From Alphaproteobacteria bacterium UBA3635 (lineage in GTDB: Bacteria > Pseudomonadota > Alphaproteobacteria > Rs-D84), in NCBI GenBank assembly GCA_002373935.1, contig DFKW01000004.1, positions 27,704 through 91,703 of the forward strand: a DNA stretch of 64,000 bases. The letters are read 5' to 3'. The translations under genes were made by a program, and so were the position numbers. Each line of letters begins with the position of its first letter. Positions within the stretch are counted from its first letter, which is position 1. This document shows, piece by piece, positions 57,105 to 59,559 of this stretch. Under the pieces are notes generated by a model, which saw only the letters and a program-made list of their open reading frames with translations, ran no database searches and was not told the DNA's origin.

Positions 57105-57133
57105 AAACACCGGTGTTTACCGGTATTTTTATA
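57104..57133. terminator. Bidirectional terminator, CACCGGTG-family hairpin
   Basis: aaaaacaccggtgtttaccggtattttt. Confidence 0.65.
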
Positions 57134-57371
57134 ATATTTGTTCTATAAATTTGATAATTTCTTCATCGGTTAATTTTAACACGCGCAACCAACGAATTGT
57201 TTCCATAATATCTAAACGCCGTTCATACGTTTCAACACGACCAACACAACAATGCGTGACTTTCAATTTAGATGCCAAATCACGTTGTGTCCAACCGAGT
57301 TTTTTTCTAATTTCAACCATTTGGTCAATCATACCACGGTATTTTTCTTGAAAAATCGTTTTCTTATTCAT
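57129..57371 (-). CDS. Small XRE-family HTH regulator, candidate controller (C) protein of the adjacent MTase/nuclease module
   Basis: 80 aa (or about 63-67 aa from an internal Met). HTH LGWTQRDLASKLKVTHCCVGRVE. Divergently oriented from the MTase gene. Confidence 0.6.
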   Translation of the reverse strand: MNKKTIFQEKYRGMIDQMVEIRKKLGWTQRDLASKLKVTHCCVGRVETYERRLDIMETIRWLRVLKLTDEEIIKFIEQIL

Positions 57372-57389
57372 GATATCATTTTGATATCA
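57371..57389. promoter_or_regulatory. Tandem 8-bp palindromes TGATATCA-TTT-TGATATCA, candidate C-box-like operator
   Basis: Seen directly in the 72-bp divergent intergenic region. Overlaps the HTH gene start. Confidence 0.5.
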
Positions 57390-57397
57390 AATATTTC

Positions 57398-57425
57398 TTG
57401 AACTCAAATTGAGAGCAAGTATAAT
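57398..57425 (+). promoter_or_regulatory. Sigma70-like promoter for the MTase gene (TTGAAC, 16-bp spacer, TATAAT)
   Basis: ttgaac at 57398-57403, tataat at 57420-57425. RBS aaaaggac precedes the ATG at 57444. Confidence 0.5.
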
Positions 57426-57443
57426 ATATAAAAAGGACAAAAA

Positions 57444-58466
57444 ATGCCTAATACACGTGAAGCATTGGGAAATGCACACCAAAATAGACAGGACGAATTT
57501 TATACCCAGCGTAGCGACATAGAAAAAGAATTAAATAATTACAATCACTTATCAAAACACAACCATTTTAAAGACAAGGTTGTTTTTTGTAATTGTGATG
57601 ACCCAACAGAATCAAATTTTTTTAAATATTTTGCTGATAATTTTACTGCATTGGGGTTAAAAAAGTTAATTTGCACACATTATGAACCAGACGAAAACAA
57701 AAAATCTTATGTTTTAACAATAAGTCGTGGTCGCGATATTAATAAAGACGGCAAAATAAATAGACATGATGTTGTCAAAAACGAAATGTTATTTTCTAAT
57801 GGTGATTTTCGTAGCCCTGAATGTATAGAATTTTTAAAAGAAGCAGATATTGTTTGCACAAACCCGCCATTTTCGTTATTTCGCGAATACATAGCCCAAT
57901 TAATGAAACACAACAAGAAATTCTTAATTATCGGCAATCAAAACGCCATAACATATAAAGAGTTTTTTCCACTTATAAAAGAAAACAAAGTGTGGCTGGG
58001 GTGCACTATGAACGGGTCAAACCGTTGGTTTAGGGTACCAAATTATTTTAAAGACTCTGCATCAACTAAAATCGGTGATGGAAACGATAGTTTTGAAAAG
58101 GGTGTTAAATATTGTTTCGTAAAGGCCGTTGTATGGTTTACAAATCTGGATTGTCAAAAAAGACATGAAGATTTTATTCCGCGTAATTATAAAAATTATA
58201 ATGAAAATGATTATCAAAAATATGACAATTATGATGCGATAAATGTTGATAATGTAAATAATATTCCTGTTGATTACTATGGTATTATTGGTGTTCCAAT
58301 AACTTTTTTACACAAATACAACCCCGAACAATTTGAAATTATAGGTTTAGAAAGATATACCGCGCCAAAAGACATTTTGATTGGCGGTAGATTGGCGATT
58401 AACGGCAAACCAACTTATGCACGTATTTTAATTCGTAGAAAAAAGGAAACAAAAAATGGAAATTAA
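57444..58466 (+). CDS. N6-adenine DNA methyltransferase (NPPF catalytic motif; EcoRI-methylase-like family by recollection)
   Basis: N-terminal NRQDEFYTQ motif, VCTNPPFSLF (motif IV), 340 aa. Low-GC. Confidence 0.6.
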   Translation: MPNTREALGNAHQNRQDEFYTQRSDIEKELNNYNHLSKHNHFKDKVVFCNCDDPTESNFFKYFADNFTALGLKKLICTHYEPDENKKSYVLTISRGRDINKDGKINRHDVVKNEMLFSNGDFRSPECIEFLKEADIVCTNPPFSLFREYIAQLMKHNKKFLIIGNQNAITYKEFFPLIKENKVWLGCTMNGSNRWFRVPNYFKDSASTKIGDGNDSFEKGVKYCFVKAVVWFTNLDCQKRHEDFIPRNYKNYNENDYQKYDNYDAINVDNVNNIPVDYYGIIGVPITFLHKYNPEQFEIIGLERYTAPKDILIGGRLAINGKPTYARILIRRKKETKNGN

Positions 58467-59559
58467 ATTAAAAGAAGTAACTATTCGTGAACTTGCCAAA
58501 GGTTATGTTGATAATATGGAAGACGGTGTTGTCGCGTATTCTGGGCGATTGGATGTTCGCCCGGCATATCAACGGGAATTTGTATATAAAGACAAACAAC
58601 GCGATAATGTTATTGATTCTGTTCGTAAAAATTATCCGTTAAATGTTATGTATTGGGTTGATAATGGAAATGACCAATATGAAATTTTAGACGGTCAACA
58701 ACGCACAGTTTCTATATGCCAGTATGTTAACGGGTATTTTTCAATAAACGACAGACAATTTGATTCTTTGGAACAAGACGAACAAGATAAAATTTTAGAT
58801 TATCAATTACAAGTTTATGTTTGTTCAAATGGAACAGATTCTGAAAAATTAGAATGGTTCAGGACTATAAATATTGCTGGCGAAAAATTATCTGACCAAG
58901 AATTACGTAATGCCACATATCGTGGGCCATGGTTGACCGAGGCAAAAAAACATTTCTCTAAAACCAATAATCCTGCCCAGGCAATCGGCGATAAATACAT
59001 TTCTGCAAAATGGAACAGACAAGAAGGTTTAGAAACGGTTTTATCTTGGATATCAGATGATAAAATAGAAAGGTATATGAACGAACACCAAAAAGATTCT
59101 AACGATAATGAATTATGGTTATATTTTCAATCTGTAATTGCTTGGGTAAAAACATTATTTCCAAATTACCGAAAAGAAATGAAATCTGTTAATTGGGGAT
59201 TGTTATATAATACATATCATACAAAATCGTTTGATGCCACAGAATTGGAAAAACAAATCTCTGTTTTGATGCAAGATAGCGAAGTTGAAAATAAACGTGG
59301 TATTTATGAGTATATATTTGATAACAACCAAAAACACCTTAATTTACGACAATTTGATGATAATATAAAACGCACTGTTTATGAAAAACATGGCGGTATT
59401 TGCCCAATGTGTCGTGGAACCGTAAATGAAAATAAAAAATGGGAAATCAGCGAAATGGAAGCTGATCATAATATTCCTTGGTCAAAGGGTGGAAAAACAG
59501 TAGAAGAAAATTGTGTAATGTTATGCAGACAACACAATCGTGAAAAAAGCGACAAGTAA
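58456..59559 (+). CDS. DUF262 (ParB/Srx-like, DGQQR motif) protein fused to a C-terminal HNH nuclease; GmrSD-like putative restriction endonuclease
   Basis: ILDGQQRTVSI. C-terminal CPMCRG...ADHNIPWSKGG...CVMLCRQHN (CxxC...H-N-H...CxxH). Overlaps the MTase gene by 11 bp. Confidence 0.65.
   Translation: MEIKLKEVTIRELAKGYVDNMEDGVVAYSGRLDVRPAYQREFVYKDKQRDNVIDSVRKNYPLNVMYWVDNGNDQYEILDGQQRTVSICQYVNGYFSINDRQFDSLEQDEQDKILDYQLQVYVCSNGTDSEKLEWFRTINIAGEKLSDQELRNATYRGPWLTEAKKHFSKTNNPAQAIGDKYISAKWNRQEGLETVLSWISDDKIERYMNEHQKDSNDNELWLYFQSVIAWVKTLFPNYRKEMKSVNWGLLYNTYHTKSFDATELEKQISVLMQDSEVENKRGIYEYIFDNNQKHLNLRQFDDNIKRTVYEKHGGICPMCRGTVNENKKWEISEMEADHNIPWSKGGKTVEENCVMLCRQHNREKSDK

Follow-up and report, generated by a model that had tools for sequence, protein, structure and literature searches.

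In the EcoRI restriction-modification (R-M) system the nuclease, R.EcoRI, is a PD-(D/E)XK enzyme, and on EcoRI plasmids its gene precedes that of the methylase, M.EcoRI. Small XRE-family controller (C) proteins, e.g., C.PvuII, C.AhdI, C.Esp1396I and C.BclI, are found beside other R-M operons. The pvuIIC transcript is leaderless, and classical C-boxes have a centre spacing longer than 11 bp. In Helicobacter, R-M units have reportedly been inserted with a repeated target sequence on either side. The nucleases GmrSD, BrxU and SspE share a DUF262 domain with the motif DGQQR, through which the binding or hydrolysis of nucleotides governs the nuclease (PMC4619093, PMC12707154, PMC13251355). The locus considered here is a low-GC insert of 2.5 kb between nth and pheT in Alphaproteobacteria bacterium UBA3635. 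The DNA analysed is a stretch of 64,000 nucleotides from contig DFKW01000004.1 (assembly GCA_002373935.1), referred to below as the window. The insert is probably a mobile type II-style R-M cassette that landed in the bidirectional nth/pheT terminator.

Three open reading frames (ORFs) make up the insert. The first, at 57129-57371 on the minus strand, encodes an XRE-family helix-turn-helix (HTH) regulator of 80 amino acids (aa). It is transcribed divergently, across an intergenic region of 72 bp, from a two-gene operon on the plus strand. This operon consists of the gene for an EcoRI-family N6-adenine DNA methyltransferase of 340 aa (57444-58466) and the gene for a nuclease of 367 aa with DUF262 and HNH domains (58456-59559); the methylase stop and the nuclease start overlap by 11 bp. 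On the left the insert is flanked by nth (56454-57104, plus strand; HhH-GPD in Pfam, E=6e-23) and on the right by pheT (59607-61925, minus strand). The GC content is 0.29-0.34 over 57200-59600, compared with 0.41-0.49 in the flanks. A preliminary description of this DNA had reported such a low-GC insert, with the three reading frames at the same positions, a small XRE gene divergent from a two-gene operon, and an 11-bp overlap. All of the sequence features that it named are present.

The methylase is a full-length member of its family. It covers profile positions 2-345 of 345 in PF13651 (EcoRI_methylase) with E=5e-121 and 404.6 bits (cut-off 26.4), and it matches the PADLOC model MTase_II with E=1e-111. 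Both DEFYTQ and the catalytic NPPF motif can be read directly in the sequence, and the earlier assignment of the protein to the N6-adenine methyltransferases of the EcoRI family stands. A search of the PDB by sequence gave no match for the methylase.

The nuclease aligns over residues 1-367 with positions 1-372 of the PADLOC model REase_II PDLC03418 ("Type II restriction enzyme"), with E=2e-129. In Pfam it matches PF03235 (GmrSD_N, aa 34-155, E=4e-20) and PF01844 (HNH, aa 316-366, E=2e-8); DUF1524 (PF07510) gave no match at E<=0.1. The protein is built of an N-terminal ParB/Srx-like DUF262 domain with DGQQR at residues 79-83, a helical middle, and a C-terminal, zinc-bound classical HNH domain. 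The HNH residues are D337, H338, N352 and N361, and the zinc cysteines (CxxC...CxxxC) are C316, C319, C353 and C357. In a 24-member alignment the nucleases are 55-61% identical across phyla, and RPxYQREF, DGQQRT, the HNH residues and the zinc cysteines are invariant. Since all of these are present in the window nuclease, this copy is intact, with the DUF262 and zinc-finger HNH domains that had been read from its translation. A protein search with the nuclease produced at least 8000 scored relatives, and among the matches listed the best are 55-65% identical even when they come from Elusimicrobiota, Bacteroidota, Clostridia, Anaerolineales and Ignavibacteriae.

The preliminary description had regarded the pairing of such a nuclease with a methylase as non-canonical, and this does not hold. 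A scan with the nuclease of one genome per species detected at least 598 loci, the best 80 of which were examined by tblastn for a methylase. An EcoRI-family methylase gene lies directly upstream of the nuclease gene, on the same strand and often overlapping it, at every locus with upstream DNA (77/77); the remaining three of the 80 begin at a contig end. The 80 loci include Bacteroidota, Clostridia, Patescibacteria, Campylobacterota, Actinomycetota, Acidobacteriota, DPANN archaea and Nitrosopumilus. The methylase-nuclease (M-R) pair is also found on small plasmids of lactobacilli, enterococci, staphylococcal relatives and others, where the NCBI labels for the two products are 'adenine-specific methyltransferase EcoRI family protein' and 'DUF262 domain-containing protein'. 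Pairing is therefore the rule for the nuclease family in many phyla. Linkage conserved across domains in this way is the mark of a horizontally mobile R-M unit, and the opposite of what characterises a type IV enzyme working alone. The pair is found widely and is already catalogued in the hidden Markov model (HMM) sets for defence systems.

Some homologous M-R loci (loci are given here as L numbers) have features of their own. In L189 (1-2148) the nuclease is 94% identical to that of the window and the partner methylase only 75%. The L189 methylase has an insertion of about 38 aa (337 tblastn columns vs 299 query residues), and gene calling splits it into two ORFs. This pattern points to mosaic recombination within the cassette or to a decaying methylase gene. 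Close homologues of the pair without an HTH gene (L089, L086, L088 and L004) lie between a HAD gene and rmuC. They are preceded by a highly structured leader of about 190 nt (L089 4778-4962; L086 4775-4975; L088 about 4760-5005; L004 about 110-300), with an intrinsic terminator just before the methylase start and minimum free energy z values of -5.8 and -4.5. A repeated CUCCAACCA segment in it could switch between hairpin and terminator. Rfam gave no match for this leader, which, represented by three distinct sequences, is a candidate attenuator or riboswitch-like leader of the R-M operon.

The site occupied by the cassette is empty in close relatives. A metagenome scan with the Nth protein gave 80 related loci. 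In relatives with 76-90% identity in Nth and 80-93% in PheT whose contigs include both genes, the two genes are convergent and 54-153 bp apart, with a single bidirectional hairpin between them, of the type AAAACACCGGC-AAAT-GCCGGTGTTTTT (L091, 6649-6705; L093; L095; L098; L102). Because the nth|pheT site is empty in these genomes, the cassette has been inserted, in agreement with the earlier suggestion of a horizontally acquired insert. In the window, one copy of this hairpin stands on each side of the 2.5-kb segment, with the loop inverted between the copies. The left hairpin (57100-57133; ACACCGGT-GTTT-ACCGGT with A/T runs on either side) can terminate nth on the plus strand and the HTH gene on the minus strand. 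The right hairpin (59559-59590; ACACCGGT-AAAC-ACCGGTGT, with a 14-pair stem that includes the A/T runs) terminates the M-R operon on the plus strand and pheT on the minus strand. Both were found in a terminator scan of both strands, so that the insert is indeed bracketed by terminators as had been claimed. An Rfam scan of the island gave only sub-threshold matches, located on the right terminator.

The hairpin is not confined to the island. As ACACCGGT-N4-ACCGGTGT with A and T runs it has 10 strand matches in the window, compared with 0.03 expected, at 11796-11815, 13871-13890, 22317-22336, 57107-57126 and 59565-59584, and it appears to be the standard bidirectional terminator of this genome. 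Since it recurs elsewhere in the window, the insertion point is taken to be a generic terminator and not a specific attachment site. Only the hairpin itself is clearly duplicated at the island ends. A longer target-site duplication that would include TTTTTAATATTTTG was considered and rejected: its left copy overlaps the native C-terminus of the HTH protein (...KFIEQIL), which is identical in L178-181. The M-R island also occurs next to nth in the opposite orientation, in L189. Because the flanking hairpins are palindromic, they are direct and inverted repeats at once, and recombination between them could flip the island.

The nth|pheT terminator is polymorphic in this lineage. It can be empty, or carry the HTH gene together with a gene for an outer-membrane protein (OMP)-like or lipoprotein-like product, or carry the HTH gene with the M-R pair, in either orientation. 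Occupied sites are L171 3845-5261, L174 4107-5095, L177 1053-2294, L182 4279-5243 and L183 39-1164. In L092 (6649-6767) and L094 (6646-6792) the terminator hairpin is duplicated around a filler of about 50 bp (GGATTATACCCACAAAATTTTGCAATTTTGCGGGGCCC), which may be what an excised island left behind, or else a very small mobile element.

The HTH regulator is an optional, exchangeable add-on that is controller-like in position and is not specific to R-M systems. Its match to HTH_3 (PF01381) is borderline (E=8e-5, 23.1 bits vs a 23-bit cut-off), and PADLOC Control_protein is matched at E=1e-3. In the PDB, its profile matches the uncharacterised XRE proteins 3EUS, 3F6W and 2EF8 at E~1e-10, and the controllers C.AhdI (E=4e-3), C.Esp1396I (E=5e-3) and C.BclI (E=0.05), with HipB at 0.01. 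Entry 2EF8 may be C.EcoT38I; the sole paper found describes it as a putative E. coli transcription factor. Close homologues of the HTH protein number only 20 in 5.8 billion clusters, all of them from similar uncultured Alphaproteobacteria. For example, in very close relatives of the window genome (IleS 92%, PheT 91-98.6% identical) the nth|pheT site holds a 76%-identical HTH gene that points away from a gene of 121-227 aa with a signal peptide. Phe is the last residue of the 202- and 227-aa proteins, the former of which has a weak Opacity-porin match. In L182 and L183 (PheT 81%) an HTH gene with 75-81% identity stands opposite a similar gene of 213 or 260 aa, again with a C-terminal Phe, and the 260-aa protein has a weak phage-OMP match. 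These cargo proteins are read as lipoproteins or small outer-membrane proteins.

More distant homologues of the regulator occur with other R-M types. The gene for a 54%-identical HTH protein (L178-181) lies divergent to a type III mod-res operon; the element concerned also encodes a serine recombinase. In Streptococcus suis prophages (L188), a gene whose product is 34% identical points away from an HsdM-like methylase and a half-S gene. For homologues on Acinetobacter and Roseobacter plasmids an R-M context was not seen. The element in L178-L181 (20-6421) is common in gut metagenomes, with its HTH protein P0140 in 95 index blocks, and it also encodes a protein of 343-355 aa without a family match. 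Viewed from the M-R pair, a small HTH gene (XRE, MerR or other, in either orientation) lies by the methylase at about 10 of the 61 homologous loci with enough upstream DNA. None of the small HTH genes at these 61 loci is homologous to that of the window, and in about 85% of homologous pairs an HTH gene is absent upstream.

The DNA between the HTH gene and its cargo is conserved. Alignment A2, which compares the regulatory DNA of the window with seven homologous regulatory regions, contains a block of about 60 bp that is conserved in all homologous modules, whether these carry the M-R cassette, the type III mod-res locus or OMP-like cargo. The block holds the cargo promoter, TTG(A/C)AC - TCAAATTGAGA... 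- TATAAT, and an invariant ATCAAAATGATA stands directly before the HTH ATG. In the window the promoter is of sigma-70 type (57398-57425, plus strand; TTGAAC-16-TATAAT, 10/12 positions) and is the best in the region in a promoter scan; the near-consensus methylase promoter of the preliminary description is thus present. Downstream of it come the methylase Shine-Dalgarno sequence AAGGA (57433-57437) and, at 57444, the start codon ATG. In homologous modules this promoter stands ahead of the OMP-like genes of L174, L182 and L183 and of the type III mod gene of L178. The HTH strand reads TTGAGT-18-CAAAAT-6-ATG, with a -35 element that overlaps the -35 of the cargo promoter, and no Shine-Dalgarno sequence is found before the HTH ATG. 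This arrangement suggests a leaderless HTH transcript and two back-to-back, mutually interfering promoters.

Several palindromes lie in this region. Two of them, ATGATATCAT (57370-57379) and TTGATATCAA (57381-57390), have centres 11 bp apart, and the first overlaps the HTH start codon. The sequence TGATATCA occurs five times in the window (1.3 expected), and as a tandem pair only here; its other sites are single and not obviously near gene starts (ORFs were checked only for 51814). Tandem palindromes spaced like a C-box had been proposed. The tandem GATATC pair is present, but only the core ATCAAAATGAT is kept in the distant homologue linked to R-M genes. The distal GATATC palindrome varies between modules (TTGGTATCAA, TTGGAATCAA), and the proximal one is GATAGC in the type III module. 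The conserved core of the repeats, ATCATTTTGAT (57375-57385), occurs once in the window; it is a candidate operator and/or the -10 region of the HTH gene (CAAAAT, minus strand, 57378-57383). The best candidate for a shared operator is an 11-bp palindrome, CTCAAATTGAG (57403-57413), within the spacer of the methylase promoter. It is unique in the window, overlaps the -35-like TTGAGT (57402-57407, minus strand) of the putative HTH promoter, and is unchanged in all homologous modules as part of the invariant block TCTCAATTTGAGT (A2). Conservation of the palindromes could equally reflect promoter elements, and a C-box is just one possible reading of the GATATC repeats. In L171, L174 and L177, two promoter/palindrome modules lie around an AT-rich spacer of about 300 bp with repeated TTTATTTCATG(T/C)AA motifs.

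These relatives bring in an explanation that has a fair claim on attention while falling short of being probable. The HTH protein may be no dedicated R-M controller but the resident regulator of a portable platform of HTH gene and divergent promoter, in which it mainly regulates itself, and the M-R pair would then replace the OMP-like cargo of sister genomes. The genomes with PheT at 91-98.6% fit this well, with their 76%-identical HTH gene, OMP- or lipoprotein-like cargo and identical promoter at the nth|pheT site, as does the absence of the HTH gene from most M-R homologues. In addition, the identity of the HTH proteins (75-81%) is below that of the flanking housekeeping proteins (88-98.6%, L171-L177), so that whole modules have been exchanged. 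Association with R-M genes nevertheless extends beyond this cassette, since distant HTH homologues diverge from methylase-first operons of two other R-M types (type III in L178-181; HsdM and S in L188), and the promoter/palindrome block is kept in the type III case. Control of the M-R operon by the HTH protein is no more than plausible, and the locus is not a canonical C-box system. Of the controller-regulated R-M system envisaged in the preliminary description, the cassette with its divergent XRE gene, palindromes and strong promoter stands, whereas the controller part is doubtful. Likewise, a small XRE protein in an R-M locus and palindromes are present as proposed for a C protein with a C-box, but the similarity to controllers is marginal, the orientation is divergent and the closest homologues are linked to OMP-like genes.

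The likely target of the mobile R-M cassette can be approached through the methylase. On E. coli plasmids, the methylase encoded beside 'type-2 restriction enzyme EcoRI' shares 48% identity with that of the window over 98% of the length, and the alignment with M.EcoRI is one ungapped-looking piece with no large gap (identity 48-51%). Identities between M.EcoRI and 75 aligned partner methylases are 46-62% (mean 52.5%), compared with 42-99% (mean 56.9%) among the 75 themselves. M.EcoRI nests inside the partner methylases in a neighbour-joining tree of this alignment. As a rule, type II methylases with this degree of full-length similarity have the same specificity. Given the nested position of M.EcoRI and the full-length similarity, the target is probably GAATTC and the product GAm6ATTC. 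There are no GAATTC sites inside the island.

Site avoidance was also considered as a guide to the target and proved uninformative, with the host avoiding many palindromes at once. At 73 loci carrying the M-R system, only generic avoidance (CTAG, GGCC, GATC) was seen. GATATC was rejected as a target or methylation switch: its observed/expected ratio in the window is 0.71, and the module linked to the type III genes has not kept the palindromes. Many 4-bp palindromes are scarce in the 64 kb, with AGCT at 5, CTAG at 9, GATC at 14, ACGT at 44 and GTAC at 45 occurrences, where base composition predicts about 240 each; CGCG and GCGC are enriched 3-4x. Among 6-bp palindromes, ATTAAT, TTTAAA, GTTAAC and GTCGAC are 7-10x under the Markov expectation. 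The trend is also found in close relatives (L091-L104, L171-L183) and suggests long exposure to many restriction systems.

The way in which the nuclease acts can be approached through its fold. An AlphaFold (AF2) model (pLDDT 83, pTM 0.51) has an alpha/beta domain (residues ~1-140), a helical region (147-295) and the HNH domain (296-367). In Foldseek searches of the PDB the N-terminus resembles ParB-type CTPase folds (Noc, PadC, ParB, sulfiredoxin) and the C-terminus Gme HNH and McrA, with weak E-values (1e-3 to 0.1) and high probabilities; BrxU is matched with a probability of only 0.15. Matches in a sequence-profile search of the PDB are confined to the HNH part (Gme HNH, McrA, group II intron maturase, Cas9). 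Because DGQQR is invariant and there are precedents among DUF262 proteins, a similar nucleotide role is likely, and by analogy the DUF262 domain would bind a nucleotide and gate the nuclease.

A stronger form of this analogy would make the nuclease SspE-like: DUF262 would sense the methyl mark of the host, hydrolyse a nucleoside triphosphate, and license the HNH domain to nick or cleave unmarked invader DNA. The invariant DGQQR and RPxYQREF in a ParB/Srx-like fold would suit such a mechanism, as would the strict linkage of the nuclease to a modification gene, and in BrxU and SspE nucleotide binding or hydrolysis by DUF262 is coupled to a His-Me nuclease (PMC12707154; PMC13251355; PMC4619093). 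Similarity in sequence to SspE and BrxU is, however, limited to the Pfam domain, and the Foldseek probability for BrxU is low; PADLOC files the nuclease as type II, and two compactly arranged, translationally coupled genes are what type II systems typically show. This mechanism is unlikely. The version in the preliminary description, a modification-dependent, GmrSD-like type IV nuclease secondarily paired with a methylase, is very improbable in spite of the PF03235 GmrSD_N domain with its DGQQR: the C-terminus is PF01844 HNH with DUF1524 absent, the PADLOC type IV model covers the HNH part only (E=4e-4) in contrast to the full-length type II match, the nuclease is never without a methylase in 77 loci, and a nuclease that depends on methylation would turn on its own host if expressed together with a methylase.

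Some observations count against the insert as a type II-style R-M cassette. The window holds 9 GAATTC sites where 27 are expected, a depletion of about 3-fold, but relatives that have no island at nth|pheT are depleted to the same degree, so that avoidance of the sequence does not discriminate. The closest homologues of the HTH protein accompany OMP-like genes, and the closest homologues of the M-R pair (L004, L086, L088, L089, L191) have no HTH gene; the regulator is therefore dispensable for the pair. The nuclease family is without a solved structure. A named, characterised prototype in REBASE was not identified for it, and the type II label in PADLOC is a database filing; the origin of the R-M models is not stated in the PADLOC paper of 2021. 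A type II enzyme of the DUF262-HNH kind is not described in the GmrSD phylogenomics paper, the 2014 review of type II enzymes, the 2025 R-M review or the Menshen paper. The locus is a recently inserted, intact and ordinary member of a very common R-M family.

In such a cassette the EcoRI-family methylase would mark host DNA at N6-adenine, probably in GAATTC. The nuclease would be translated from the same mRNA via the 11-bp overlap and would cut unmethylated incoming DNA through its HNH active site, with the DGQQR ParB/Srx-type domain probably binding a nucleotide and/or DNA and gating the cut. The XRE protein, made from the compact back-to-back promoter pair and probably from a leaderless mRNA, most likely binds CTCAAATTGAG and the ATCA-N3-TGAT core of the GATATC repeats. 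When bound, it would repress its own promoter and tune the overlapping M-R promoter. A more speculative proposal, put forward only tentatively, is that a nucleotide-gated DUF262-HNH enzyme took the place of R.EcoRI beside methylases of the M.EcoRI clade and recognises GAATTC by means of a fold unrelated to that of R.EcoRI. In this lineage the pair would have been mounted on a portable platform of leaderless HTH gene and back-to-back promoters, which takes up type II R-M, type III R-M or surface-protein genes as cargo and uses a palindromic terminator both to insert and to flip.

As a non-canonical pairing the locus matters little, the pair being common and the unit an ordinary mobile R-M unit. 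Its interest lies elsewhere. A very widespread restriction enzyme family joins a ParB/CTPase-like domain to HNH, and a full-text search of the literature found no biochemical characterisation of a DUF262-HNH type II nuclease. Methylases of the M.EcoRI clade serve two unrelated nucleases, a clean example of partner swapping. The regulator with its 60-bp promoter block is a reusable module for different cargo at one chromosomal hotspot, and is informative on how small defence cassettes move without recombinases.

Compared with the Helicobacter R-M units, that of the window is likewise compact, has no recombinase gene and lies between housekeeping genes, with a copy of the target hairpin at each end and a site that is empty in relatives. 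In contrast to those units, the repeat is only a palindromic terminator of about 28 bp with the loop inverted between the copies, and both orientations of the island are seen (window vs L189, L171-183). Recombination at the palindrome would explain the arrangement equally well.

Like C.PvuII, C.AhdI, C.Esp1396I and C.BclI, the HTH protein is a small XRE protein encoded beside an R-M operon, with palindromes immediately upstream of a start codon that lacks a Shine-Dalgarno sequence. It differs from them in its marginal HMM and PDB similarity (E~1e-3 to 5e-3), in a gene that points away from the M-R operon and is not co-transcribed with the nuclease gene, in palindromes that are unlike C-boxes of the GACT/AGTC type and more narrowly spaced (11 bp between centres), and in closest homologues that adjoin cargo other than R-M genes.

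With GmrSD, BrxU and SspE the nuclease has in common an N-terminal DUF262 domain of ParB/Srx-like fold with DGQQR and a C-terminal nuclease of His-Me type. Its C-terminus is a classical zinc-bound HNH (PF01844), whereas theirs is DUF1524; it is about 200 aa shorter than BrxU; its family is always encoded beside a methylase; and neither a full-length sequence match nor a fold match connects it to them. By these sequence comparisons the nuclease shares the domain but is not a member of their family. In the EcoRI system the partner of the methylase is the PD-(D/E)XK enzyme R.EcoRI, while in the window it is an unrelated ParB-like and HNH nuclease; the order of genes is methylase then nuclease, with an overlap, in place of the reverse order on EcoRI plasmids, and the window copy carries a divergent HTH gene. 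The methylase itself is a full-length member of the M.EcoRI family, and it is here that the likeness of the two systems lies.

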